A DNA stretch of 64,000 nucleotides from an uncultured Methanosarcinales archaeon (GCA_964556185.1 CAZKVI010000003.1:2089-66088); one strand, 5' to 3'; shown: positions 1,773-48,897, counted from the stretch's first letter. The notes: generated from the sequence alone by a model not told the origin. Numbers and translations: made by a program.

Positions 1773-2914
1773 TTGAAATAACTCAAAACCCTATCTATTT
1801 TTTTATTTTTCTTATATTCTTTAGCTAAAGACATAACTTTCTTCTTGTCAATATCCAATCCACTTCTCTCGATAAACTTACCTGAAGAGAAGAATTGCAG
1901 AACTTGAGTTACATTCTTTGGTCTTTCAGAATAATTAGATCTTTCAAAGTCAATCAAATGAATTTTGTTCTTGTCGTCGATTATAATATGTTTCATTGGT
2001 TTATGCATCTCTTCTTTGTTTATGTTTAATTCATCCATTTTCTTCATCAATCGCAATAATTGTCTCATTACATCTTTTATTTCTTTTTTATTTCCTTTCT
2101 CAAATAAATCATGTATCAATTTCCCGTCAACAAATTCCATTACAAAGTAATCATCGCAACCAAAACACAATTTTGGACCTATTTTTTCTTTATTTAGTTT
2201 CTTTAGCCAGTTTTTCTCAATCTTTACTCTTGATATTGCTTCACTCATAGGATTTTTAGATTTGACAACAACTTTTTTACCTTTATAATTAGCTAAAAAC
2301 AATAATCCTCTATTACCTTTTGTAAAATATTGAACATTTGTTAATCCTTTTCCTTCTAAAGTTTTCAAAAACTTTTGTTTTTCAATAATATAAACATACA
2401 ATTCTTCAAAACCAACTTTCAACTTATCAATTTCCTTAAACTCAAATAAATTTCTATCTAAAATCTCACAAACTTTCTTTTTCTTAGATAATGAACTAAA
2501 TAATAACAATATTTTACCATTTTCAACTAAATAAGAATTAACATTATCCAAAAACCTCTCAATAAGTTCATAACCTTTTTTACCTCCATCTAATGCAATA
2601 TCTCGAGCATAATCTTTCTCAGGATCTGGTAAATAAGGCGGATTAAAAATAACTAAATCAAACTTCCCAGTAACTTTTGAGAACAAATCACTTTCAATAA
2701 CTTTTACATTCTTCAAATTTTGTTGTTTAACATTCTTTTGAACAAACTTAACAGCTTCTGGATTAATATCAACAGCTAATACATTAGCATATTTAGCAGC
2801 TTCTAAAGCAAGTATTCCAGAACCAGTACCTATTTCCAATACATTACCTTTGCAATAGTCTTTCAAATGCTTTTGCAATAGATAAGAGTCTTCTCTTGGT
2901 TGATATATTTCCAT
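1769..2914 (-). CDS. Fusion protein: N-terminal HemK/PrmC-type N5-glutamine methyltransferase (Mtq2-like) and C-terminal RIO/Bud32-like protein-kinase-fold domain
   Basis: N-terminus has LEIGTGSGILALEAAK (SAM-binding glycine-rich motif I) and FNPPYLP (the NPPY substrate motif of HemK/N6-adenine methyltransferases). C-terminal half has HLIDFERS (the IDFxxS motif of RIO/Kdo kinases) and IHDLFEKGN (catalytic-loop-like). Confidence 0.6.
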   Translation of the reverse strand: MEIYQPREDSYLLQKHLKDYCKGNVLEIGTGSGILALEAAKYANVLAVDINPEAVKFVQKNVKQQNLKNVKVIESDLFSKVTGKFDLVIFNPPYLPDPEKDYARDIALDGGKKGYELIERFLDNVNSYLVENGKILLLFSSLSKKKKVCEILDRNLFEFKEIDKLKVGFEELYVYIIEKQKFLKTLEGKGLTNVQYFTKGNRGLLFLANYKGKKVVVKSKNPMSEAISRVKIEKNWLKKLNKEKIGPKLCFGCDDYFVMEFVDGKLIHDLFEKGNKKEIKDVMRQLLRLMKKMDELNINKEEMHKPMKHIIIDDKNKIHLIDFERSNYSERPKNVTQVLQFFSSGKFIERSGLDIDKKKVMSLAKEYKKNKKIDRVLSYFN

Positions 2915-2950: not shown

Positions 2951-3451
2951 CTAAAAATCCAAATCAATTTTCCTAAAATAGTCAGTTACTCTGCTCATTA
3001 TTGGTGGTAAAACATATTGTTCAATCTTCTCCCTATAAACATCTTGTAAATCACTGAATTCAACAATTCTATAATTATTCTTAATTTTCTCAACAAGAAA
3101 AATATCTCGAAGTCTTTTAATTTGTCTTCTTACATTTGAAGAAGCCACTCCAGTCAAAGGTAATTCATAATTATTCCTTGTTTCAATTACCATTGATCTT
3201 ATTTCATCAGAACTTAAGTTCTTTCTGTCTTTTTTTGCTTCTAAAATAACATAGAGTACATCAACAATTACATCTCTACTATCACCTGGCTGTAAAAGAC
3301 CCATGCTTAAGCAGAACTTTCTTACTAATTCTCTTTTATCCAAGGAATCTGGTTTTTCATATCTTCTTAATGTGAGTTCCATCAAAGGAGTATCGCGGGA
3401 GATTGTTGCCATAATTATCACCTCAATTATATGTAGCAGCATTGAGCTCAA
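2951..3451 (-). CDS. Hypothetical protein (possible DNA-binding regulator)
   Basis: 166-aa ORF. The true start is likely the internal Met (MATISRD). Confidence 0.3.
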   Translation of the reverse strand: MSSMLLHIIEVIIMATISRDTPLMELTLRRYEKPDSLDKRELVRKFCLSMGLLQPGDSRDVIVDVLYVILEAKKDRKNLSSDEIRSMVIETRNNYELPLTGVASSNVRRQIKRLRDIFLVEKIKNNYRIVEFSDLQDVYREKIEQYVLPPIMSRVTDYFRKIDLDF

Positions 3452-10757: not shown

Positions 10758-11843
10758 ATGGGTGTTGAAGAACTTAGAGCAGCAGTAATTGGAGCAAATA
10801 AAACTAATTCAGGCTTAGGTCTATATATTGTTCAGAAATTCCATAAATTAAGTAGAGTAGATTTAGTTGCATTCTCGTGTAGAACAGAAGAATCTGCTAG
10901 ATATGCAAATACTGCTTTTAGAGAACACGGAATTGATGCAACACCTTATTATACTCATAATGGTTCTCCAGAAGATTCAATAGATGCAATGTTAACAGAA
11001 AAAAGACCAGATATTGTTGCAATATGTACACCTAATAGAACACATTTAGATTATCTTGAACTTGTTCTTGATCATAATGATACTTCTGATCGTAAAACCC
11101 ATGTTCTTCTTGAAAAACCTTTAGCAGAAAGTTCTCCAGAGCATATAGAAAGAGATCTTGACAGAGCAATTGAACTTGTAGAAAGAGCTGAAAAACAAGA
11201 CATAGTTCTTACATACAATGCTTCACTTGCTGCATTAGTTGACCCATATAAAGGAAAAGTTGGAGATTTAGATGATAATCAATTTACTGTAGCAATGCAT
11301 ATGAAACATAAAGGAGGGGAATTACCTTCTCCAAGAACACTCCAATACTCAATCTTATCCCATACAATAGGAATACTTCAAGCATATTTTGGTCCAAACA
11401 TGGGTATTGAAAATCTTGAAAGAAAAACTACTGAGCCAACAGGTGATGATAATGCAGTTGGTGCTTATCACAAATTTACATTAACATATGGTGGATGGAA
11501 AAGTGTTCCTTGCATTATTGATCTTTCTAAATCACCAGAACTTGCGAAGCATGAAAGATATTTTGGAGTTAAAGACAATTATGCTCACATTGAAAAGAAA
11601 GATGGTTTCTGGCATCTTGTTTTCAAAGATGAAGAACGAAAAGTTGAAGACTTCCAAGACACAGTTATTGCAAACATGGTAGATGTAGTCAGAACAGAAC
11701 CAAATCGTCGAGGTGTACTTGATCACCCAAAACCAATCCTCGACGGTAGAGCAATGATAATGAACCAAGTCATATTGCACACATTAATGGGAGATCTAAC
11801 ACCAGAAAAAGCTGAACAATATCAGAGAAAGTTGTATAATTAG
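10758..11843 (+). CDS. Gfo/Idh/MocA-family NAD(P)-dependent oxidoreductase
   Basis: N-terminal Rossmann domain (AAVIGANKTNSGLGLYIVQKF) followed by AICTPNRTHLDY and VLLEKPLA, the EKP motif of the family. GC-richer composition. Confidence 0.6.
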   Translation: MGVEELRAAVIGANKTNSGLGLYIVQKFHKLSRVDLVAFSCRTEESARYANTAFREHGIDATPYYTHNGSPEDSIDAMLTEKRPDIVAICTPNRTHLDYLELVLDHNDTSDRKTHVLLEKPLAESSPEHIERDLDRAIELVERAEKQDIVLTYNASLAALVDPYKGKVGDLDDNQFTVAMHMKHKGGELPSPRTLQYSILSHTIGILQAYFGPNMGIENLERKTTEPTGDDNAVGAYHKFTLTYGGWKSVPCIIDLSKSPELAKHERYFGVKDNYAHIEKKDGFWHLVFKDEERKVEDFQDTVIANMVDVVRTEPNRRGVLDHPKPILDGRAMIMNQVILHTLMGDLTPEKAEQYQRKLYN

Positions 11844-28390: not shown

Positions 28391-28828
28391 ATGGCTAAAG
28401 TTAAGAGTAATGCAATTGGAAAACTTGAAGATGGTACTGAAGATAATAGAGCATATAATGCATTGGTTCGTCAATATGGTGTTGCATTTAAAGAATTATA
28501 TGATAATTTTCCAAGAGAACCAAAACCAAGATTAGGTCTTTATATGATGAGTATTAAAAGACCTGAAGGAGTCTTACGTCTTACACCAGGGGTTGTTGGT
28601 AGTTCATCAGATGGGATCCAGAAAAGAGTTCAAGCACATCTAGGAAAATGCTTAGATCAAATTGGATTAGATGATTTATGTATGGACGTTTTTACAGTTT
28701 CTTGTAATAGTACGAGCAGTGTTTGTGAAATAACTCCTTACACACTTGAAGCTAGAGCTTATTTAAAACATTATGGACAACAAATACTTGTTCCAGAAAT
28801 GCGAAGATTAAGATCTCAATCAAAATAA
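28391..28828 (+). CDS. Hypothetical protein
   Basis: The likely start is MAKVKSN, internal to ORF 28364..28828. Composition is slightly GC-richer. Confidence 0.3.
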   Translation: MAKVKSNAIGKLEDGTEDNRAYNALVRQYGVAFKELYDNFPREPKPRLGLYMMSIKRPEGVLRLTPGVVGSSSDGIQKRVQAHLGKCLDQIGLDDLCMDVFTVSCNSTSSVCEITPYTLEARAYLKHYGQQILVPEMRRLRSQSK

Positions 28829-29232
28829 TCTTCATAAGCAAATTTTCTTTTTTCAAATGTACAAGATCCTTTGTCTTCAATAACATTTCCATCTAGAGAA
28901 TTCCTAAATCTAGCAATTAATGCATTACAATCACTACATCTTCGAAAACAAGTTCCAATTTCCACTTCAAAACCTTTTTCATTTAATTGTTTTAACTTAG
29001 TTGGCACTTCTGCTCTTTCTCTGAAGACATTATAAACATTATGAACAAAAGAAGAATCAATTATTGCATCAGAGAGTCTAATTTGAAGTTTACATTTCTT
29101 AGGTGCTTTAGTTTCAACAACATCTTTCCTTATAAGGATACATCTAGAATTCTTTAGTCTATTCTCTCTATCTTGCTTTTGCTTTGCAAACTTATCAGGA
29201 AGTTTAATACTTCCATCAGGATTGAATTCCAT
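28816..29232 (-). CDS. Hypothetical Cys-containing protein (CxxC...CxxxCxxC)
   Basis: ORF 28816..29328 is trimmed to the internal Met (MEFNPDG) because its N-terminal 32 codons overlap the tRNA-Lys gene. Confidence 0.3.
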   Translation of the reverse strand: MEFNPDGSIKLPDKFAKQKQDRENRLKNSRCILIRKDVVETKAPKKCKLQIRLSDAIIDSSFVHNVYNVFRERAEVPTKLKQLNEKGFEVEIGTCFRRCSDCNALIARFRNSLDGNVIEDKGSCTFEKRKFAYEDYFD

Positions 29233-29236
29233 TTTA

Positions 29237-29356
29237 CGGGCCCACGGGGATTCGAACCCCGGGCCTATGGCTGTCTGTGCGTAAGCAAAGACCCAGTGGA
29301 TCTTTGATCCTAACGCGTAAGAGGCCACCGCTCTAACCAGGCTGAGCTATGAGCCC
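29237..29356 (-). tRNA. tRNA-Lys (anticodon CUU) with a ~45-nt intron at the canonical 37/38 position
   Basis: Minus-strand read: GGGCUCA-UA-GCUC-AGCCUGGUUA-GAGC-G-GUGGC-CUCUUA[intron]A-GCCAU-AGGCC-CGGGG-UUCGAAU-CCCCG-UGGGCCC-G. All four stems pair. The T-loop is TTCGAAT. Confidence 0.7.
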
Positions 29357-29485
29357 ATAAAGGGCTTGACTGACCAAAGGGAAGGAAACCCTTCTTGCGT
29401 GTCGACCGAGCGTAACCAGTCGCCACGGGTGAGATTGAGCCCATATTATTCTCAGAATTAAATATTAATTTATAAAAGTTCTTGA

Positions 29486-30367
29486 TTATCCTTGATAAAA
29501 ACCAATTAACTGTCTTTGTCTCTTAACATGTCTTAATTTTCTTAAGGCTTTTACTTCGATTTGTCTTATTCTTTCTCTTGTTAAATCAAATACTTGACCA
29601 ATCTCTTCAAGAGAATAATGACGAGGATGATCAATTCCATATCTCATTTTCATAACTTTTTCTTCTCTGGGTGTTAATTCAGCAAGTACACTTCTAACAG
29701 CCTTTGCTAAATCAGAATCCCCTACATTTTCATCAGGTCTTCGAACACTAGCTCCTTCTATAAAATCACCTATGGTTGCATCTGATTCATCACCAACTTT
29801 TTGCTCTAATGATAATGGTTCTCTTGCAAGCCTATAAATATCTTCAATTTTTTCAACTGGTTCACCTAACCAATCTGCAATTTCTTCAGAAGTTGGTTCT
29901 CTACCAAGATCAGTAACAAGTTTTCGAGCCGTTCTTCTAACTTTAGTAACCATTTCTAATTTATAAATTGGAATTCTTATTGTTCTTACTGTAGCTTCTA
30001 TTCCTCTAATAACACTTTGTCTAATCCACCAAGAAGCATATGTAGAAAATTTATATCCTCTTCTATATTCAAATTTTTCAACAGCTCTTATTAAACCTAA
30101 ATTACCTTCTTGAATTAAATCACCAAGTGGCAAGCCTCTATATTGGTATTGTCTTGCAATACTAACAACTAGTCTTAAATTGCCTTTTATTAAATCTTCT
30201 TTAGCTGTAGCTGCTTCATAAGGAGTGCCTTCTTCCATTGTTGTAGCTAATCTAACTTCATCATCTCTAGATAATAATGCTACAGCCCCCATTTGATTCA
30301 TATACTTCCTTAGAACTCTAGGATCATCTCTATATCTTGGCCCACCTTGATAATGACTAACACCCAT
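29486..30367 (-). CDS. Bacterial-type RNA polymerase sigma-70 family factor (regions 2, 3 and 4, RpoD-like)
   Basis: [40 protein letters not shown] aligns nearly residue-for-residue with RpoD region 2.1-2.4. [14 protein letters not shown] matches region 3. [15 protein letters not shown]...[29 protein letters not shown] matches the region 4.2 HTH. GC-richer codon usage. Confidence 0.8.
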
Positions 30368-30406
30368 TTCATAAGGTAATCAATAGTTACTTTTAAACCT
30401 TCCTAG

Positions 30407-31510
30407 GTGGTCTGTGTTGATTATACCCATTCTCAAGTAGTTAAAAACAGAAAGGCTTATATATGGGATAAAGTACCTTCATATATAAAGTGGGGTTTAA
30501 ATATGAGTAAAGCAAGACAGCTTATACAAAGAGCATTGGCAGCAAAAGATGATGAATTTTTTGATGGTGTTTATAGATTTAAAAGAGGAAATGTGTTTTC
30601 ACCAATCCCTATAGACACAGCTGACCATCTTGATCTTTATAGTTCTATAGTTCAGCTTTTGAGACCAAGCAGAACACCAAGAAAATCTATTGGGGCAACT
30701 CTACTTTATCTTTTCTTAGTATCTTCACAGGAGTTTTATGGTCAAGGACCTAAAAATTATACAACTTTTGGAAGAAGAGGAAGAGATCAAATGAAAGAAC
30801 AATTGGAAGCATATTGTAGTTCTATATCTGCTTTAGAAATTGTTTATCATGATAATAATACACCAGATGGAGCTAATGCAACTGTAGGTAAATTTGATGA
30901 ACATAGCACAAGACATGAATTAGAAGATTTACTAGATCTTGTTCGAACTGATGAATGGAGAGAAGGAAGAAGTTATGAAATTGTTTATGTACAATCACCA
31001 GGAGATCTTGTTAGTGAAGATGGCAGAGAAGATATTGTAGCAGGTAGTTTATCTCAAAGATTTATAGAAGGACTTAGAGTACACGAAGATTATTTTGCAA
31101 CAAATGATACATTTAGAGAAGAAGTACCTGATGAAGATTATGCACACCTTTTTGAAGGTGATGTTAGTCATAGGGAAACATATGAACTATGTGATCAATA
31201 TCTTGTAGATCACCAAGAACTTTCAGATACAACAAGAGAACATCTTGAAGGATTTAGAGCTAGAATGTTATTCATGGCATGCTCACAAGAACAAGACCCA
31301 AAGGCGGAAGCTTTCTTTGATGGATTAGTTGCCCAAGTTTTACCAGCTCTCCCAACAGAAGAGTTTTACATAAATCAACTAGCTAGAAACGTTGCACAAA
31401 CTGGCGGTGTGTTAATTCTTGAAGGATTCCAACAACAAGAAGTAGAAGGTTTCGAACTTCTCCAAGAAGATAGGAATGTTCGTTTATACACTAGAGTTGT
31501 TGAGGAATAA
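30407..31510 (+). CDS. Hypothetical acidic protein (divergent from the sigma-factor gene)
   Basis: The likely start is the internal MSKARQ at about 30503. No motif recognised. GC-richer. Confidence 0.35.
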   Translation: MVCVDYTHSQVVKNRKAYIWDKVPSYIKWGLNMSKARQLIQRALAAKDDEFFDGVYRFKRGNVFSPIPIDTADHLDLYSSIVQLLRPSRTPRKSIGATLLYLFLVSSQEFYGQGPKNYTTFGRRGRDQMKEQLEAYCSSISALEIVYHDNNTPDGANATVGKFDEHSTRHELEDLLDLVRTDEWREGRSYEIVYVQSPGDLVSEDGREDIVAGSLSQRFIEGLRVHEDYFATNDTFREEVPDEDYAHLFEGDVSHRETYELCDQYLVDHQELSDTTREHLEGFRARMLFMACSQEQDPKAEAFFDGLVAQVLPALPTEEFYINQLARNVAQTGGVLILEGFQQQEVEGFELLQEDRNVRLYTRVVEE

Positions 31511-31561
31511 CTCTAACTATTTATCAATAAACTTTAAAAGGACTTAATTTATTCCTAATTT

Positions 31562-32260
31562 ATGGATAACTCATTTATTGCTGAAGTTTTGAAATATTCT
31601 AATATGATGAATGTTGAGCAAGGTATGAATATTTATCATTTATTAAGTCAAGTACTTGCACAAGATATTCCTGGAGAAATAGTTGAACTTGGGTGTTATG
31701 AAGGTATTACAGGTGTTCTTATCCAGAAAACATTAGATCAAGCAAATAGTAAAAAAGAATTACATTTATTTGATTCTTTTGAAGGCTTACCAAAAGTCTT
31801 ACCAGAAGATGGTCTTACTACAGCAAAAGAAGGTATGTTACGAACAGCAAAAGATAGTGTTATAGCAAACTTTAACAGATTTAATTTAAAACAACCTACT
31901 ATTTTTGAAGGTTGGTTTAAAGATACTTTACCAACTAATCTACCTGATAAAATATGTTTTGCACATTTAGATGGAGATATGTATTCTTCAATAATAGAAA
32001 GTCTTAATTATATTTATCCAAAACTTTCTAAAGGTGCAATTGTTATTATTGATGATTATTATTGTCGTGAAGGCCATATGAAAATAGAAAAAAGAATGAA
32101 TGAAAATTCATACCAACAATTTCGTAATATAATAACAGAAGTCAAAGATATTCTTCCAGGTGTAAAAAAAGCATGTGATGAGTTCTTTGAAGATAAACCA
32201 GAGAAAATAATTGTTTTAATGGCAGGTTGCGAAAGACATGCATATTTTAAGAAAATGTAG
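31562..32260 (+). CDS. Class I SAM-dependent O-methyltransferase, TylF/MycF (macrocin-O-methyltransferase) family
   Basis: GEIVELGCYEGITG (SAM motif), LHLFDSFEGLP, FAHLDGDMYSS and LSKGAIVIIDDY follow the TylF pattern. Confidence 0.65.
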   Translation: MDNSFIAEVLKYSNMMNVEQGMNIYHLLSQVLAQDIPGEIVELGCYEGITGVLIQKTLDQANSKKELHLFDSFEGLPKVLPEDGLTTAKEGMLRTAKDSVIANFNRFNLKQPTIFEGWFKDTLPTNLPDKICFAHLDGDMYSSIIESLNYIYPKLSKGAIVIIDDYYCREGHMKIEKRMNENSYQQFRNIITEVKDILPGVKKACDEFFEDKPEKIIVLMAGCERHAYFKKM

Positions 32261-32295: not shown

Positions 32296-32973
32296 ATGGA
32301 AAAACTACACAGAGTTCAGAAATTATTAAGCAACTACGGCTATTGTTCTAGACGAAAAGCTGAAACATTAATCCAAGATGGAAGAGTTAGAGTAAATAAC
32401 AAAAGAATTACAATTGGTGATAAAGCTACTGAGAAAGATAATTTATATGTAGATAATAAACTAGTAAATAAAGAAAGTAAAATATACATAATCTTCAACA
32501 AACCTGTTGGTTGTGTAACTGCAGTAAGAGACAGAGATTACAAAACAGTTATGGATTTTGTAAAAGTTAAAGAAAGAGTTTTCCCAATTGGAAGATTAGA
32601 TTTCAACACTTCTGGATTATTATTGTTAACAAATGATGGAGACTTTGCTAACAAAGTAATGCATCCAAGATATGAAGTAGAGAAAACATACATCGTAGAA
32701 ATTGACAGACAAATTAGTAAAAAAGATATGCTAAATATCCAAAGAGGAGTTAAATTAAGAGATGGATTCACTTCCCCAGCTAAACTTAGAAGAATTAACT
32801 TAGATATAATAGAAATTAAAATCCACGAGGGCAAAAACAGAGTTGTAAGAAGAATCTTCAACAAATTAGGTTATAGAATTAACTCATTAGAAAGAGTTGC
32901 AATTGGTAAACTAAGATTAGGCAAATTACAATCTAAAAAATACAAAATTCTAAAAACAGAACCAAGAATTTAA
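32296..32973 (+). CDS. Pseudouridine synthase, RsuA/RluB family, with N-terminal S4 domain
   Basis: S4 segment VQKLLSNYGYCSRRKAETLIQDGRVRVN. Catalytic motif FPIGRLDFNTSGLLLLTNDGDF with the conserved Asp. Confidence 0.8.
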   Translation: MEKLHRVQKLLSNYGYCSRRKAETLIQDGRVRVNNKRITIGDKATEKDNLYVDNKLVNKESKIYIIFNKPVGCVTAVRDRDYKTVMDFVKVKERVFPIGRLDFNTSGLLLLTNDGDFANKVMHPRYEVEKTYIVEIDRQISKKDMLNIQRGVKLRDGFTSPAKLRRINLDIIEIKIHEGKNRVVRRIFNKLGYRINSLERVAIGKLRLGKLQSKKYKILKTEPRI

Positions 32974-35222
32974 CCCCAAGAATAATCAACAACTATATGC
33001 ACTGGAACTATTGTGCCACCATACTCAAAATTTCCCATACCTGCTCCTTGTAATCTTGTTGCATCGTTATTTAATTCTGCTAAAACATCTGGATTATTTG
33101 GATAATGAGGAACAACACTAGTCTTACTTGTAGATGAATCATGGAAATATCCAAATGGATCTGGTGTTGCAATTCCCCAGAAATCACATGTTCTTGAGAA
33201 CTCAGAAGACTCCCACCAAGATAATAACCAGTCAGTACTTCCATCATAAACATTCAAATTAACTTCATAAGCAGAAGGATCATCTTCAGAAGCTTCTAAT
33301 CTTGTTGGTGCTTTACTTGAAGAAGGATATTTCTCATCAACTTCCCATGTATTATATTCAGAACCACTTACAGTACTTGAATCACTTTCCCATTGCAGAC
33401 TACATGATCTTGCGTATTCTATAAATTGGTGTTCATTATAACTATAATAAAGCATTTGATCTTTAACAACAAACTCATCATTGTCCTCGTCATAAACCAA
33501 TGTATCTCTTGACATCATATATCCTCTTTCAAACCAAGATCCTGTTCCAGGATCTCCTGATAAAGTTAATTCAGACATATCTACAGATGTACTATAACTC
33601 CATGAATAAGTTGTATAACCACTCCATTCAGGAGCACATTTACCTTCTGCATCAATATCAAATTGAGTAAATGCAATATTATCTAAATGTGAATTTGCAA
33701 CAATAACAACTGCTACATCTATTTCTTCTGTTGGTCTTGTTCTACAAAATTTTAACTTTTTCAACTCAGAAACATCTTGGTAAAACCAATGCTCTCCAAT
33801 TTTATAAACTATTTGTGTTGCAAAGTCTGGTTGAGAATCTGTAGTAATTAAACTAAAATCAAACTCAACTCTATCAATATCATCTTCAAAGAAATAATAA
33901 TAATACATTATTCCTCCTGGGTTTAAATTAACTTCTTGAGTGTATTTTTCTTTATTCTCAAATGTTTTCTTTTTCCTACTTTGTCCATATGGTTTTTTTG
34001 TTGGTTTATTATTATGATCATAATAAAACTTAAATGGTTCTGTATTGTAATTGTATAAAGCATATTGTTTAAACTCTTCATAAAAGTCTGGTCTATTTTT
34101 TATTGCATCTTTCATACCTAATAAACCTGCTTCATCTAACATTTTCTTGACGACCATTCCATCTTTTCCATATCTATGTGATAAAAACCAAGGCCATAAA
34201 TAAGAACCATATTGATGATAAGTTACATTATCAGAGTCAAAAAAATCTTTATTAAAATAAGGAAAAATATTACTATCAAAACCATGCTCTGTATTAACTT
34301 CAGGATATGTAAAATCTTCTGACCATGTTGCAGTTGATTCCCAAATCCATTCTTCTGTAGAATATGACTTCAAAGGAATATATTGTTGAAAACAATGAAA
34401 TAATTCATGTGCTGTTGATGTTTTTAATGCATCATCACTTTGTGAAGTACTAATTAAAATATGACATCTATTAGCTCCTTCATGATCATCCATATATTGT
34501 TGTCCATCATCTTCTAAGCTTTGTACTTTTACATAAATCCAATCTGTTGGTTCTTTCATTCCAAGATTTTTATATTTATTATAAGAATGTTCTAAAGCAG
34601 CTTTTACAATATCTGCTTTATCAGTTATCCAAGGATCATCATAATGCACTTGCCATTTTCCATCAATTGGATGTTCATTATCCATTGCATTTACTGAAGG
34701 TATAATAGCTACTGCATCTAAAAATTCCCTTGCTAAAGATTCATCTTCTTGATTAATTTTATACCAATAACTTTCAGGATCATCAGGATTTGTAACAAAA
34801 GGTCTTAGAATATCTTGTGTTTCCTCAGAGAAATCATCAATTCTATCATTAATCATCAATAATAAGAAAGAACTATCTCTTCTTTCTGCTCTAATTGATT
34901 TGTATTCATTTGGTAAGTTTTTATGATCAAATGCTTCCAAAACTCTTAGAATATAATACTCTTCTTCTGTAATTATTCCTTTATTATGATAAGCATCATT
35001 GATTAATGTTAGAGATAATGGTTCTTCAGGTTCCTCTGGTTCTCTTTCTTCATAAATATCTAATAACCAGTCTTCAAAATCACTTGTATCTACATTACCA
35101 CCACCAATTGAAAATCCACTATCATCACTTCCACAACCTTTGAATAACAAGAATAGAATTACTAATATTACAATACCTACAATTGCAAGAAGAATAGTTT
35201 TCCGCCCCATAGGCATTTCCAA
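32970..35222 (-). CDS. Membrane-anchored secreted protein with an HExxH zinc-metallopeptidase motif
   Basis: N-terminal signal-anchor (ILLAIVGIVILVILFLLF), a TSTAHELFHCFQQY motif, and a large Trp/Tyr-rich extracytoplasmic domain. Confidence 0.45.
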   Translation of the reverse strand: MEMPMGRKTILLAIVGIVILVILFLLFKGCGSDDSGFSIGGGNVDTSDFEDWLLDIYEEREPEEPEEPLSLTLINDAYHNKGIITEEEYYILRVLEAFDHKNLPNEYKSIRAERRDSSFLLLMINDRIDDFSEETQDILRPFVTNPDDPESYWYKINQEDESLAREFLDAVAIIPSVNAMDNEHPIDGKWQVHYDDPWITDKADIVKAALEHSYNKYKNLGMKEPTDWIYVKVQSLEDDGQQYMDDHEGANRCHILISTSQSDDALKTSTAHELFHCFQQYIPLKSYSTEEWIWESTATWSEDFTYPEVNTEHGFDSNIFPYFNKDFFDSDNVTYHQYGSYLWPWFLSHRYGKDGMVVKKMLDEAGLLGMKDAIKNRPDFYEEFKQYALYNYNTEPFKFYYDHNNKPTKKPYGQSRKKKTFENKEKYTQEVNLNPGGIMYYYYFFEDDIDRVEFDFSLITTDSQPDFATQIVYKIGEHWFYQDVSELKKLKFCRTRPTEEIDVAVVIVANSHLDNIAFTQFDIDAEGKCAPEWSGYTTYSWSYSTSVDMSELTLSGDPGTGSWFERGYMMSRDTLVYDEDNDEFVVKDQMLYYSYNEHQFIEYARSCSLQWESDSSTVSGSEYNTWEVDEKYPSSSKAPTRLEASEDDPSAYEVNLNVYDGSTDWLLSWWESSEFSRTCDFWGIATPDPFGYFHDSSTSKTSVVPHYPNNPDVLAELNNDATRLQGAGMGNFEYGGTIVPVHIVVDYSWG

Positions 35223-38647: not shown

Positions 38648-39094
38648 ATGCTAGACGGAAAACAAATTGCAGATGTTGTTAGAGCTTTTGAAGAAGAAGT
38701 ATTAAGCCAAATAGCTCCTGATCAAGCAGCAGATGCAGCTGCAGATCTTGATATGAGGTTACGTAGAGATTTATTAGGTGATGCAGTGTTCGGTGATATT
38801 GTTTTTAAAGATGGTTATTATTATAGCACAAGTTCCCAGTATGGCAAACAAAAAGCAGACTCAACACCAGGTCTTATCTTAAGGTATTTATTGGACCATG
38901 AAGGAGAAACTTTCTCAAAAGATGAACTCTTTCCAAACATTCCACGTGAAGACAGTACTTGTTCTGGTGCATTAACACTTGATGTTATTCCTTGGGTAAA
39001 TGAATATTCAAAAGTCTATGAAGCATTTAAAGAAGGATATGCACCTACAAAATATGGAATAAGAAGAATACAAGAAGCTCCTCAAGATACTTAA
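38648..39094 (+). CDS. Hypothetical protein
   Basis: 148 aa, GC-richer composition. Confidence 0.35.
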   Translation: MLDGKQIADVVRAFEEEVLSQIAPDQAADAAADLDMRLRRDLLGDAVFGDIVFKDGYYYSTSSQYGKQKADSTPGLILRYLLDHEGETFSKDELFPNIPREDSTCSGALTLDVIPWVNEYSKVYEAFKEGYAPTKYGIRRIQEAPQDT

Positions 39095-40077
39095 TCTTCC
39101 ATATCTTTTATTTTCTTCCAATCTTCTTCCATCTCTCGCAACAATTCAATATCAAATTTCTCAGATAACTTTTTCCTTAATTTTGCAGCACCAGGAACAC
39201 CTTTTGTGAAAAAGAATGCGTGCTGTTTTAAGTCATTGAAATCAAGATTAAACTCTTTCCATAACTTAAGATACTCTTCAAACATTTCAACTTTCGATTT
39301 CTGCTCCAAAACTTTCCCAGTCCTAAGATACTCATCAATCTGTTTAAACAAAAATGGATTTCCACATGCAGCTCTTCCAATCATTATTCCATCACAATTA
39401 GTCTGTTTCAATAATAACTCTGCACTTTTGCAATCAACAACATCTCCATTTCCAATAACTGGAATATTTAATTCATCCTTAACTTCCTTAATCACAAACC
39501 ATTTTGCTTTGCCAGAATAAGATTGCGCAACTGTTCTACCATGAATAGTTATTGCAGATGCTCCTGCCTTCTCTATCACCCTCGCAATCTTCAAACAATT
39601 ATGCTTTTTAATACCAGATCGAATTTTCGCAGTAACTGGTTTATCAGTAGAAGAAACCATTGCTTCAATAATTTCTTTAATCTTTGCAGGCCTTTTCAAT
39701 AAAGCAGAACCAGCACCTTGTTGTATAATTTTTCTAGCAGGACAACCAAAATTAAAATCAATTATATCTGCTTTTTTCTCAATAATTGAAACAGCTTTTT
39801 TAATAACATCTATTCTAGTTCCAAATAATTGCATTGCTACTGGCTTATCTCTAGCACAAGTAGCTGTCATTCTTATTGTAGCTTTATTATTCCTAGATAA
39901 GGCATTTGCATTGATCATCTCACTAACACATAATCCAGCATTATACTTATTACACATAACCCTAAAAGCCACATTTGAAACACCTGCCATAGGTGCCAAT
40001 ATAAGGTTATTCCTTAACTTTAGCTTGCCAATCTTCATATATGTGAAGAAATTCATAATATTTATAAAACCTTCCAA
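39091..40077 (-). CDS. dus: tRNA-dihydrouridine synthase (Dus family, FMN TIM barrel)
   Basis: LILAPMAGVSNVAFRVMC, DFNFGCP and a catalytic Cys context. The likely start is the internal MKIGKL. Confidence 0.85.
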   Translation of the reverse strand: MEGFINIMNFFTYMKIGKLKLRNNLILAPMAGVSNVAFRVMCNKYNAGLCVSEMINANALSRNNKATIRMTATCARDKPVAMQLFGTRIDVIKKAVSIIEKKADIIDFNFGCPARKIIQQGAGSALLKRPAKIKEIIEAMVSSTDKPVTAKIRSGIKKHNCLKIARVIEKAGASAITIHGRTVAQSYSGKAKWFVIKEVKDELNIPVIGNGDVVDCKSAELLLKQTNCDGIMIGRAACGNPFLFKQIDEYLRTGKVLEQKSKVEMFEEYLKLWKEFNLDFNDLKQHAFFFTKGVPGAAKLRKKLSEKFDIELLREMEEDWKKIKDMED

Positions 40078-40091
40078 CTTCGCAATTTTCT

Positions 40092-42887
40092 ATGTCAATA
40101 CAACCTACAAAGAAAAACCCAATATTCTCATTTATTATACCGATCTTAATTGTAATTTTCTTTTCATCAACTAAATTAATCAATTTAGTAACAGATTATT
40201 GGTGGTTCGATGCATTAGGTTTCAAAGAAATCTTTATGATCAGCTTAAAAGCTAAATTAACATTATTCATAGCAGCAGCATTATTCTTCTTCATATTCGC
40301 ATTAATTAATCTAACTATCTCAACCTATCTAAACAAGAAAATAACAATGCCAAAAGGTGTTAAACCAATACCATTTAGATTCAAACTTTTATTAACATCT
40401 TTAGTGGCTTTATTTGTTGGTTTTGTATCTTACAATTCTTGGTTTAATGTTTTGCAATACTTAAATCAAACACCTTTTAATTTACAAGATCCAATATTTT
40501 TTAGAGATGTTGCATTCTATGTGTTTTCATTGCCATTTTTCTTATTTGCCTGGAAATTTTTAATGGCAACTTTAGTAATTACAACAATTATTGTAGCTAT
40601 AGATTATTTACAAGCAATATTCTTTTCATTACTTAAGAAAAAACATGACAAACCACAAGTTGTTGATGCAAACGGAATCCCAAGAAGTACTGGTCAAATA
40701 AACATAGCTGAAATATTCAAAAACATAAAACAATATGCATTAGTACATCTAGCTTTCTTAGGTTCATTATTTTTCATTTTATTAGCTGTAAAACATTATT
40801 TAACAAAATTCTCAATTATGTATTCAGAAGCAGGAATTGTCGTCGGAGCCGGTTATACAGATGTAGTAGTTTTTGTCCCAATTGTAAAATTACTTACAAT
40901 CTTAGCAGTCATTGTGTCTGTATTATTCTTTGTCTGGATTTTTGTAATATCAAAATCACAAAGATTAAAGAAAAGACATATTTTAGCTTACTTCGTAATC
41001 CTATATTTGATATTTTTCTTTATAGCACCAACAGTAATCCCAGGTGTAATTCAAGCATTAAAAGTTGATCCAAATGAAATCAATCTAGAAAAACCTTATA
41101 TTGAAAACAATATTGAATTTACAAAAATTGCTTACGGTTTAGAAGATGTTGAAGAAACAGATTTCTCAGTAGAAATGTCATTAACACCAGAAATCTTAGA
41201 AGAAAATCCAGAAACAATTGATAATGTAAGAATATTAGATTGGAGACCATTAACACAAACATATAAACAAACACAAGAAATAAGGTTGTATTATGATTTA
41301 GCAAATATTGATATTGATAGATATACAATTGAAGGAAAATATACAGAAGTCATGCTCTCACCAAGAGAAATTAATCAATATCAAATCATAGATAATGCAC
41401 AAACATGGGTTAATTTACACATGGTTTATACTCATGGTTATGGTGTTGTAGTAAGTCCTGTTAATAAAGTCACAGAACAAGGAATGCCTGAGTATCTTGT
41501 ACAAGATATTCCATCTGTGTATAATGTTGATGAACCTTCTTTAATTGTAGAAACACCACAAATATATTATGGAGAAATAGACAATGATTTTATCTTAACA
41601 AACACATTAACTCCAGAATTTGATTATCCAAAGGGAAACACAAATGAATACCTGCATTATGATGGAAATGGCGGAATTGTTCTCGACACTTTCTGGAAAA
41701 AAGCATTAATGGCATTAAGATTCATGGATATTAAGATATTATTATCAGATGATTTAACTATAGAAAGTAAGATAATGTTTACAAGAGCAATCCAAGACAG
41801 AATTGCAAAATTAACACCATTCTTAATGCTTGATTATGATCCTTATTTAGTTATCAATGATGGAAAATTATATTGGATACAAGATGCTTACACTTATACA
41901 GGGAACTTCCCATACTCTGAAAAATACAACATGATTAATTACATGAGGAACTCTGTGAAAATTGTAGTCGATGCATACAATGGAGATGTAACTTATTATA
42001 TTGTTGACACAGAAGATCCATTAATTGCAACATATGCAAAAATCTTCCCAGATCAATTTAAGTCATTCGAAGAATTCCCAGAAGGATTAATTGAACATAT
42101 TAGATATCCTGAAAACTTATTTGATATACAAGCTTACATTTATAGTACATATCATATGAATGATCCAACTGTCTTTTATAATAAAGAAGATGCATGGGAT
42201 ATTCCTACAGAAGTCTATGGTACTGGTCAACAAATATATGTTGAACCATATTATATTATTATGAAATTACCAGGAGAAGAATCTGAAGAATTTGTTTTAA
42301 TGACTTCATTTACTCCAATAAGTAAAGATAATATGATTGCATGGCTAGCAGCAAGATCTGACGGAGATAATTATGGTAAACTATTGTTATACAAATTCCC
42401 AAAAGATAAATTAATCTATGGTCCATTACAAATAGAAGCTAAATTTGACCAAGACTCAGAAATATCTCAGCAATTAACACTTTGGTCTCAACAAGGTTCT
42501 AGTGTTACAAGAGGTAACTTATTAGTAATTCCAATTGATGATAGTATTTTATACATTGAACCACTTTATATCCAAGCAGAAACAGGTCAATTGCCAGAAT
42601 TAAAAAGAGTTTTAGTTTCAGATGGAGAAAGAGTAGTAATGGAACAATATTTATCAGATGCATTAGAAATTCTATTCGGAAAATCATCAACAGTTGAAGA
42701 TACAGAAGACGACAGGGAATATACTGGAGATGTAGAATACTCAGGCGATGAAACAGATGAAGAATTAATGCAATCTGCTCAAGATTACTATGATTCAATA
42801 TTAGAATCTATGGAATCTGGTGATTGGGTAGAATTTGGAGAAAACTTTGACAATCTTGGCCAAGTTTTGAATGAATTGAATAATTAA
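40092..42887 (+). CDS. UPF0182-family large membrane protein (N-terminal multi-TM region plus large extracytoplasmic domain)
   Basis: 931 aa. About seven TM helices in the first 300 aa are followed by a long soluble region carrying motifs I associate with COG1615 (GNLLVIPIDDSILYIEPLYIQA). Confidence 0.6.
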   Translation: MSIQPTKKNPIFSFIIPILIVIFFSSTKLINLVTDYWWFDALGFKEIFMISLKAKLTLFIAAALFFFIFALINLTISTYLNKKITMPKGVKPIPFRFKLLLTSLVALFVGFVSYNSWFNVLQYLNQTPFNLQDPIFFRDVAFYVFSLPFFLFAWKFLMATLVITTIIVAIDYLQAIFFSLLKKKHDKPQVVDANGIPRSTGQINIAEIFKNIKQYALVHLAFLGSLFFILLAVKHYLTKFSIMYSEAGIVVGAGYTDVVVFVPIVKLLTILAVIVSVLFFVWIFVISKSQRLKKRHILAYFVILYLIFFFIAPTVIPGVIQALKVDPNEINLEKPYIENNIEFTKIAYGLEDVEETDFSVEMSLTPEILEENPETIDNVRILDWRPLTQTYKQTQEIRLYYDLANIDIDRYTIEGKYTEVMLSPREINQYQIIDNAQTWVNLHMVYTHGYGVVVSPVNKVTEQGMPEYLVQDIPSVYNVDEPSLIVETPQIYYGEIDNDFILTNTLTPEFDYPKGNTNEYLHYDGNGGIVLDTFWKKALMALRFMDIKILLSDDLTIESKIMFTRAIQDRIAKLTPFLMLDYDPYLVINDGKLYWIQDAYTYTGNFPYSEKYNMINYMRNSVKIVVDAYNGDVTYYIVDTEDPLIATYAKIFPDQFKSFEEFPEGLIEHIRYPENLFDIQAYIYSTYHMNDPTVFYNKEDAWDIPTEVYGTGQQIYVEPYYIIMKLPGEESEEFVLMTSFTPISKDNMIAWLAARSDGDNYGKLLLYKFPKDKLIYGPLQIEAKFDQDSEISQQLTLWSQQGSSVTRGNLLVIPIDDSILYIEPLYIQAETGQLPELKRVLVSDGERVVMEQYLSDALEILFGKSSTVEDTEDDREYTGDVEYSGDETDEELMQSAQDYYDSILESMESGDWVEFGENFDNLGQVLNELNN

Positions 42888-48649: not shown

Positions 48650-48763
48650 CGCTGTGGCCCGGATTTGAACCGGGATATCCCGGAGGAAACAAGCTAAACA
48701 GTGCATGCCTTGAAAATACATACATTTCCAGGCTTGCGCAGTACCAGGTTGTGCCACCACAGC
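48650..48763 (-). tRNA. tRNA-Ser (anticodon GGA) with a ~30-nt intron at 37/38 and a long variable arm
   Basis: Acceptor GCUGUGG/CCACAGC plus G. Anticodon stem CAAGC/GCUUG. Loop CUGGAA[intron]A. Variable arm ~15 nt. T-arm CCCGG-UUCAAAU-CCGGG. Confidence 0.65.
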
Positions 48764-48770
48764 AAAAAAA

Positions 48771-48897
48771 GGTGGCAGTGGCGGGATCTGAACCCGCGGC
48801 TTCTAGATCGCCCAGATATAAAGTTTAATCATCGGCATGAGCCTCATCACTCAAATCTTATGAGTCTAGCACTCTAACCAGGCTGAGTTACACTGCC
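48771..48897 (-). tRNA. tRNA-Met (CAU anticodon; possibly Ile2 if C34 is modified) with a ~50-nt intron at 37/38, encoded CC, and an oligo-T terminator
   Basis: Acceptor GGCAGUG/CACUGCC plus A plus CC. D-arm ACUC-AGCCUGGUUA-GAGU. Anticodon stem CUAGA/UCUAG. Loop CUCAUA[intron]A. T-arm GCGGG-UUCAGAU-CCCGC. The intron contains GUGAUGA (C-box-like). Confidence 0.65.

Follow-up and report, generated by a model that had tools for sequence, protein, structure and literature searches.

A bacterial-type sigma-70 gene long established in an archaeal lineage

The 64,000-nucleotide stretch CAZKVI010000003.1:2089-66088 (GCA_964556185.1; here called the window, meaning the whole stretch at its full length), deposited as DNA of an uncultured Methanosarcinales archaeon, carries a genuine bacterial-type sigma-70-family gene with a group-2-like architecture. 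The data indicate that an ancestor of this archaeal lineage acquired the gene from bacteria long ago, and that the gene has since adapted to its host in composition and codon usage. Passed on vertically and always at one chromosomal position, it is under region-specific purifying selection, which is weaker than that on core genes and strongest in regions 2 and 4.2. Sigma factors and the archaeal factors TBP and TFB are treated as mutually exclusive, domain-defining answers to promoter recognition. A long-selected archaeal sigma implies either cross-talk with the archaeal RNA polymerase (RNAP), DNA-binding regulation independent of a polymerase, or use against bacteria, and each of these would be informative on the evolution of the transcription machinery and on DPANN symbiosis.

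The presence of bacterial sigma-70 genes in DPANN archaea is already published, and the window gene adds a case; the value of the present analysis therefore lies in mechanism rather than in discovery. Specifically, Castelle et al. 2021 (PMC8204110) reported sigma-70 genes (fam00359) in DPANN, 'particularly prevalent in Woesearchaeota', excluded mis-binning, found no anti-sigma factors and called the controlling mechanism unclear; the only DPANN transcription factors mentioned there are the archaeal TBP, TFB and TFE (PMC8204110). Our literature search found no other paper treating archaeal sigma-70. The window gene shares with that set a bacterial sigma-70 on an otherwise archaeal contig with no recognisable anti-sigma, a likeness by description, and a distant homologue of its orphan neighbour is annotated Candidatus Woesearchaeota. 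The few sentences on sigma in PMC8204110 do not cover the origin, composition, selection, residue conservation, synteny, paralogue and orphan described here.

The gene and its domains, judged against the Pfam gathering cut-offs, all four of which are exceeded, are as follows.

29486..30367, minus strand: sigma-70-family gene, 293 amino acids (aa), group-2-like architecture with regions 1.2-4.2 and without region 1.1
30227..30313, minus strand: sigma region 1.2, residues 19-47 (PF00140, Sigma70_r1_2; 34.6 bits, cut-off 22)
29996..30193, minus strand: sigma region 2, residues 59-124 (PF04542; 71.1 bits, cut-off 24)
29726..29947, minus strand: sigma region 3, residues 141-214 (PF04539; 75.7 bits, cut-off 25.3)
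29528..29689, minus strand: sigma region 4 helix-turn-helix, residues 227-280 (PF04545; 68.9 bits, cut-off 24.1)

An earlier note, written from the sequence alone, had recognized a sigma-70 factor with regions 2, 3 and 4.2 here, and this description holds: the open reading frame (ORF) exists, the quoted motifs are present and the Pfam domains pass, including the region 2 and region 4 profiles (PF04542 and PF04545) by which the note proposed to check it. In a comparison with solved structures, residues 51-290 align with residues 371-610 of E. coli sigma-70 over equal-length spans (E 1.4e-82). With no more than 18 residues ahead of region 1.2, the protein has no region 1.1. The NCBIfam models that rank first are those of RpoD, all with their equivalog cut-offs missed (NF004208, 377 of 555 bits; NF006666, 327 of 572; TIGR02393, 313 of 354), and the RpoS equivalog TIGR02394 is likewise not reached (266.3 versus 378.7 bits). 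Regions 1.2 and 3 are present and the primary-type recognition residues are kept, which places the protein among the primary-like sigmas of groups 1 and 2, while the scores below the RpoD equivalog cut-offs and the missing region 1.1 set it apart from a group 1 primary sigma. The protein, which is basic (isoelectric point (pI) 9.3), shares its -10, -35 and clamp-helix residues with E. coli RpoD and the primary sigmas with holoenzyme structures (4jk1, 7ye1, 7ckq), but differs from E. coli RpoD in lacking region 1.1 and the non-conserved region, in its sub-threshold scores, in its pI and in having no cognate core polymerase known in its organism. With RpoS and other group 2 sigmas it shares a length of ~290-330 aa, region 1.2 and primary-like promoter-recognition residues; it differs from RpoS in falling below the equivalog cut-off and in standing outside the bacteria.

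The setting of the gene is archaeal. Pfam domains verify archaeal markers on both sides of the sigma, in agreement with the neighbourhood claimed for it earlier: P0/L10 with the archaeal/eukaryotic RL10P insert, L1, L7Ae, Rpo7, S24e and P1, together with histone, Spt4, S27ae and TFE. The aEF-1alpha, S10 and EF-2 genes near the sigma are ORFs of the window whose Pfam domains were seen on orthologues 96-99% identical to them. No bacterial RNA polymerase gene was found in the 64-kb window, where the sole RNAP subunit seen is the archaeal Rpo7. The host lineage is AT-rich and DPANN-like, with the Woesearchaeota as its likely, though unconfirmed, group.

The nearest relatives of the gene outside these archaea are bacterial. 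The next-best database matches (P0006-P0019) are 64-69% identical, 286-289 aa long and encoded on high-GC bacterial contigs. They resemble the window sigma in length (~287 aa), in having regions 1.2-4.2 without region 1.1 and in their sister position in the tree, and they share with the archaeal copies a G at E. coli position 402, I or V at 440 and Y at 455 (H in one archaeal orthologue). They differ in their gene neighbourhood, which for the four bacterial sisters that were looked up consists of GAF-GGDEF, DivIC, ExbD, ExbB, an aminopeptidase-like gene, the sigma, a PKD protein, thymidine phosphorylase, PNP and RNase D, and in their base composition (contig GC 0.63-0.71). At third codon positions the difference is extreme, with a GC content (GC3) of 0.90-0.96 in the bacterial sister genes (two copies measured, L006 and L011) and of 0.10-0.12 in the archaeal genes. 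In neighbour-joining trees with 100 bootstraps, the archaeal sigmas are monophyletic in 100/100 replicates and the 14 bacterial sister sequences in 95/100, while the grouping of the two with each other has a support of only 52/100. The whole group is nested among ~100 further bacterial sigmas of ~290 aa, the few named ones of which carry Myxococcota, Deltaproteobacteria, Proteobacteria or Alphaproteobacteria labels; those labelled Myxococcota, Deltaproteobacteria and Proteobacteria resemble the window sigma in length and architecture.

The difference in GC3 indicates that synonymous sites have been fully turned over since the transfer, which makes the transfer old rather than recent, and the monophyly of the archaeal copies argues for a single acquisition. 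Of the phylogeny that the earlier note had called for to find a bacterial or phage donor, the bacterial side thus yielded a sister group (at 52/100) and the phage side yielded nothing, as no viral relative of the sigma was found among 2.9 million viral contigs. PHROG matches of the sigma are generic sigma matches only, and sigma scans of genome and metagenome contigs gave distant bacterial matches or none, with no further archaeal orthologues.

Within the window, the sigma is native in composition. Its GC content of 0.333 compares with a mean of 0.319 +/- 0.039 over 59 genes, its GC3 of 0.105 is the fourth lowest of the 59 (window mean 0.184), and in synonymous codon choice it is closer to the rest of the window than most genes are (rank 49/59). 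The comparison of codon usage with the core genes that had been proposed thus shows a codon usage native to the window. The 'GC-richer block 29357..32260' in which the sigma had been placed is absent: the GC of the gene is near the window mean, and the only GC-rich part is the tRNA with its introns (29201-29400, GC 0.515). A GC-rich island integrated at tRNA-Lys was considered and is ruled out by base composition and synteny.

Synteny speaks for vertical inheritance. The identical sigma protein is encoded on three contigs, one from JGI (55,990 bp), one from NCBI/ENA (69,410 bp) and another, separate one from ENA (6.5 kb), and archaeal orthologues at 75-83% identity occupy the matching slot in other assemblies. 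The gene order L7Ae-S28e-L24e-NDK-EF2-EF1a-S10, followed by one or two small ORFs and tRNA-Lys, then by the sigma, the orphan gene in divergent orientation, the RsuA-like pseudouridine synthase and DUF6055, recurs in the loci L007, L008, L009, L010, L013 and L014 and in two JGI contigs; the syntenic archaeal contigs have a GC of 0.32-0.34. This syntenic position is common to at least four related archaeal lineages, which come from independent assemblies, and the sigma ORF is intact in every archaeal lineage seen.

The sigma is less conserved than the genes around it. Among the archaeal relatives, EF-1alpha is 97-99% identical, EF-2 96-99% and S10 95-100%, and the sigma only 71-84%. For the sigma, nonsynonymous divergence (dN) is 0.10-0.19 and its ratio to synonymous divergence (dN/dS) 0.30-0.52, compared with dN 0-0.05 and dN/dS about 0-0.19 for the elongation factors, S10 and the pseudouridine synthase, dN 0.11 and dN/dS 0.29 for the DUF6055 protein, and dN 0.28-0.46 and dN/dS 0.48-0.88 for the orphan neighbour. 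With GC3 so low, dS is compressed and all of these ratios are inflated, so that only comparisons between genes at the same loci are meaningful. Pooled, the dN/dS of the sigma is 0.43 overall and differs between regions, with 0.24 and 0.27 in regions 2 and 4.2, respectively, and 0.66 in region 3.2. In bacteria, region 2 binds the RNAP clamp helices and the -10 element, and region 4.2 binds the -35 element. The region 3.2 finger with its linker (residues 191-225) is the most diverged part (0.41 among archaeal copies, 0.69 against bacteria). This regional pattern of constraint parallels that in the bacterial clade, except that the archaea vary relatively more in regions 3.2 and 2.3-2.4. The archaeal sigma branch is 2.3 times as long as the bacterial sister branch in a three-point estimate.

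Constraint on the functional modules extends to single residues. E. coli numbering here equals the window residue number plus 320; it is consistent with the equal-length structural spans 51-290 / 371-610, and the roles given for individual residues follow the sigma-70 literature. The check covered the window sigma and three other archaeal orthologues. All four keep the clamp-helix contact residues D403, Q406, E407 and N409, the -10 melting and capture residues K426, F427, T429, Y430, W433 and W434, the -12 readers Q437 and R441, the extended -10 residue E458 and the -35 readers R584, E585, R586, R588 and Q589. In the basic patch K593-H600, K593, K597, R599 and H600 are invariant and position 596 is R, K or E. 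Positions 420-425 read EYRRGY in three of the four copies, as in E. coli, and DHTKGF in L010 and the bacterial sisters.

Close relatives carry, in tandem, a second sigma of 296 aa that is absent from the window (L009:2264-3154, L013:8003-8893 and L014:5270-6160) and is 44-45% identical to the first copy. The specificity positions are altered in this paralogue (R441Q, R584G, E585S, R588H). If DNA sequence recognition is what selection acts on, change at exactly these residues is to be expected. The second copy could have arisen either by duplication or by separate acquisition. A radical SAM gene stands beside it, and that gene, too, is missing from the window.

The sigma is transcribed divergently from the orphan gene, and the region between them has the following features.

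30368..30502, no strand: divergent intergenic promoter region, 135 bp, read from sequence
30390-30397, minus strand: putative archaeal-type TATA box for the sigma, TTTAAAAG, 22 nt ahead of the sigma ATG
30457-30464: putative TATA box for the orphan neighbour, TTATATAT, 38 nt ahead of the orphan ATG
30503..31510, plus strand: 335-aa acidic orphan protein when read from ATG 30503; in the mechanical ORF list its start is GTG 30407

Over four archaeal loci the 135-bp region contains long invariant runs, while the flanking proteins are only 71-84% (sigma) and 45-63% (orphan) identical, and TTTAAAAG at 22 nt before the ATG is conserved in all four. This spacing would suit a leaderless sigma transcript, and both boxes probably act as promoters, judging by their sequence and position. 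An invariant TATAAT hexamer in the same intergenic region was considered as a -10 element and set aside, since by inspection it has no credible -35 partner and ~0.5 are expected by chance. In L013 (9874-9921), an inverted repeat and possible operator, TAATCAATAGATACT / AGTATATACTGATTA, flanks the sigma TATA box; the window keeps only its outer TAATCA/TGATTA.

What the sigma does in an archaeal cell can be framed as a set of competing models. Our tentative reading, plausible but short of probable, is that it is a domesticated sequence-specific DNA-binding regulator, possibly in contact with the clamp of the archaeal RNAP. In this model, a sigma without the autoinhibitory region 1.1 would act as a sequence-specific DNA-binding transcription regulator, whose region 4 helix-turn-helix would read a TTGACA-like sequence and whose regions 2 and 3 would read a TATAAT-like sequence. 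It would thereby modulate TBP, TFB and RNAP at a small set of promoters, in the manner of other bacterial-type regulators in archaea. Region 2.2 might furthermore dock on the archaeal RNAP clamp coiled-coil, the homologue of the bacterial docking site, and the acidic orphan neighbour may serve as a partner or antagonist. Truncated sigma-70 lacking region 1.1 at its N terminus reportedly binds promoter DNA alone, as is said to have been found by Dombroski and colleagues in 1992-93. In archaea, the basal machinery is commonly under the control of bacterial-type helix-turn-helix regulators (PMC2995911).

Several observations weigh against a regulator of this kind. The evolutionary rate of the sigma is several times that of the housekeeping genes around it (dN 0.10-0.19 versus 0.01-0.05), and partial relaxation of selection would have the same appearance as fast evolution with a long archaeal branch. 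Cognate sites are not enriched and are even slightly fewer than expected: TTGACA-N16-18-TATAAT-like sequences matching at 10/12 positions or more number 54 in the 64 kb, with 75 +/- 9.5 expected, and promoter-like sites in the 8 kb surrounding the gene number 35, with 37.5 expected. At 11/12 or more, there are 5 in the window, with 5.4 expected. Nothing in the window suggests a sigma-dependent regulon, and a small one elsewhere in the genome is possible. Distant relatives of the orphan gene with usable context (L022, L023), moreover, have no adjacent sigma. Least well explained is the retention of D403, Q406, E407 and N409, which in bacteria serve only core RNAP and for which a stand-alone DNA-binder has no obvious need. 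As to single sites, a perfect TTGACA-N16-TATAAT at 2262-2289 (plus strand) lies antisense in a methyltransferase ORF (1769-2914); ~0.2 are expected, and the site is probably fortuitous.

Because the residues of the core-binding surface are retained, readings in which the protein binds a polymerase stay alive. That the sigma is still an RNAP-binding specificity factor, whether in hybrid archaeal initiation or by delivery to a bacterial partner cell, is unlikely yet deserves to be taken seriously, and either route would explain why core-binding and promoter-recognition residues survived a full turnover of synonymous sites. The earlier note had likewise offered an anti-sigma-like decoy or a factor re-purposed with the archaeal RNAP; nothing supports the decoy, and re-purposing in the archaeal cell stays in play.

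As a hybrid initiation factor, the sigma would place its region 2 on the archaeal clamp coiled-coil and send RNAP to -35/-10 promoters, bypassing or competing with TBP, TFB and TFE. All multisubunit RNAPs share the clamp coiled-coil, on which sigma, TFE and Spt5/NusG dock, and the conservation of clamp-helix contacts, -10 melting aromatics and -35 residues, with constraint highest in regions 2 and 4.2, speaks for such a factor. Its promoters, however, are not enriched in the 64 kb, and region 3.2, which threads the active-site cleft and RNA exit channel of bacterial RNAP, is the most diverged part of the protein. We know of no beta-flap tip helix in archaeal RNAP that could position region 4, nor, to our knowledge, is there any precedent for a hybrid initiation factor, and this version is rather improbable.

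The other route, by which a symbiotic archaeon delivers the sigma to a bacterial host or neighbour and redirects its RNAP in the manner of phage-encoded sigmas, is no less doubtful. Sigma factors encoded off the bacterial chromosome exist as nuclear-encoded plastid sigmas and as phage sigmas, which act on a bacterial-type RNAP, the plastid-encoded polymerase (PEP) or the RNAP of the host; this polymerase is present for them, whereas none is known for the window sigma. Delivery would account for the retention of all bacterial core-binding and promoter-recognition determinants, fits the absence of cognate promoters from the archaeon's own DNA, and finds echoes in the fast evolution of the sigma and its neighbour, which resembles an arms race, and in a paralogue with altered -35 specificity. 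Yet neither a signal peptide nor a gene linked to secretion is evident at the sigma, which stands among housekeeping genes, protein transfer to bacteria lacks any evidence, and the known DPANN hosts are other archaea (PMC8204110).

A slowly decaying relic without current function is quite improbable, although the dN/dS of 0.30-0.52 is well over the 0.06-0.19 of neighbouring core genes compared at the same loci, the archaeal branch is long, and neither a partner polymerase nor target promoters were found. A relic would hardly keep an intact ORF throughout the lineages seen, or 64-69% protein identity to bacteria while GC3 moved from ~0.9 to 0.1. Constraint is, furthermore, specific to regions and falls on the functional modules, the promoter region is conserved, and some relatives retain a second sigma copy.

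The recent bacterial or viral import that the earlier note had considered, in the form of a mobile element or virus integrated at tRNA-Lys, is highly improbable: the sigma adjoins a tRNA gene, a bacterial-type TylF methyltransferase and the RsuA-like pseudouridine synthase lie nearby, and rpoS-like genes are annotated in DPANN viruses (PMC12647753), but GC3 (0.105), composition and codon usage are native, the syntenic position is held in four lineages, no integrase or repeats flank the gene and the 2.9 million viral contigs hold no relative. An assembly chimera or binning artefact, the chimeric join against which the note had warned, has a negligible chance, as the arrangement recurs in independent assemblies, with archaeal genes on both sides on single contigs from at least eight samples (JGI, ENA, NCBI, Logan), the GC3 of the sigma equals that of its host, and Castelle et al. 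2021 excluded mis-binning for the DPANN sigma-70 family.

Among these models, the DNA-binding regulator, like its rivals, can be addressed at a locus that lends itself to use as a test system, for the gene is short, its DNA-recognition surface is intact and canonical, its promoter region is conserved, a candidate partner lies next to it, and close relatives supply a paralogue that is a natural specificity variant.

That candidate, the orphan neighbour, is acidic, as had been noticed before (pI 4.65), and probably starts at ATG 30503. Pfam, NCBIfam, PADLOC and PHROGs give no family match for it. Its close family comprises four clusters among the 5.8 billion proteins of a word-indexed search, each divergently adjoining a sigma, and a profile search extends the wider family to 21 representatives, one of which, 23% identical, is the protein annotated Candidatus Woesearchaeota archaeon. 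The idea that the family is always linked to a sigma fails for the distant members L022 and L023; a third, L026, is on a contig too short for this comparison. A first AF2 model built from four sequences was poor (pLDDT 53) and its Foldseek matches are meaningless; the better model predicts a class I methyltransferase-like Rossmann core with a large helical insert, apparently unlike known anti-sigma factors, and Foldseek with it gave no significant match. A gene pair transferred together was also considered and rejected, as the orphan is not homologous to the 368-aa aminopeptidase-like gene before the bacterial sister sigma (E = 1.2). The orphan is only a candidate for a partner or antagonist of the sigma. 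The orphan gene is interrupted in L009, L013, L014 and a JGI contig, where it is read as 259 and 81 aa (L013:10001-10780 and 10780-11025); the break falls at the same point in independent assemblies and may reflect either a genuine frameshift or a split gene. On the Woesearchaeota contig L022, three ~100-nt repeats (20-126, 272-378 and 1604-1725) flank the distant family member and may represent a miniature mobile element.

A role in anti-phage defence was considered on account of MzaA, the sigma of the MZA system, whose C-terminal sigma domain matches the window sigma (NCBIfam 312.9 bits, PADLOC 201 bits). This reading was rejected: the match is confined to model positions 430-714 and scores far below the cut-off of 800, the ~430-residue N-terminus is absent and no other defence gene lies nearby.

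Directly downstream of the sigma lies one further feature.

29237..29445, minus strand: tRNA-Lys(CUU); Rfam 29237-29356, with a 47-nt intron, plus 89 upstream nt

Rfam confirms the intron-containing tRNA-Lys(CUU) that had been reported at this place (29237..29356, minus strand), with its 47-nt intron located after the anticodon. The gene has its own conserved TATA box and is context rather than part of the sigma unit. The 89 GC-rich nucleotides lie between two GGGCTCA copies, directly behind the TATA box of the tRNA, and resemble either a leader or a second intron. The tRNA-Lys copy at L007:7059-7135 is free of introns and that of L010 (about 2990-3140) has related inserts in the D- and T-arms, so that, with the window copy, intron content and position vary among very close relatives. 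A gene resembling a LAGLIDADG_3 homing endonuclease stands beside the tRNA, and in its predicted extent overlaps it, in two relatives (L007:7096-7833, L008:1074-1811) and is absent from the window. The mechanical 170-aa ORF at 28816-29328 (minus strand) overlaps the tRNA gene; its true start is probably ATG 29232, giving 138 aa, which matches the ORF in relatives and has no family match. Elsewhere in the window, Rfam finds a neighbouring pair of tRNA genes, 114 and 125 nt long (48650-48763 and 48773-48897, minus strand) that ARAGORN missed and that, given their excess length, presumably contain introns.

On the other side of the orphan, the TylF-type methyltransferase named in the earlier note is present (Pfam, 124 bits; 31562-32260, plus strand) and is a strain-specific insert; in L007, L010 and L013 the pseudouridine synthase follows directly after the orphan gene. 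The RsuA-like S4 and pseudouridine synthase protein (32296-32973), which is 90-96% identical among relatives, DUF6055 (32970-35222), Dus (39091-40077) and UPF0182 (40092-42887) belong to what we take to be mainly bacterial families; the DUF6055 assignment comes from an orthologue, the window copy itself having no family match. Their presence among archaeal genes fits the 'hybrid' gene content described for DPANN. Finally, the ribosomal P0/L10 ORF (12588-13892, plus strand) encodes 434 aa, compared with the ~340 aa that we assume to be typical of archaeal P0, and an A-over-T skew of 0.37 suggests a long low-complexity tail.

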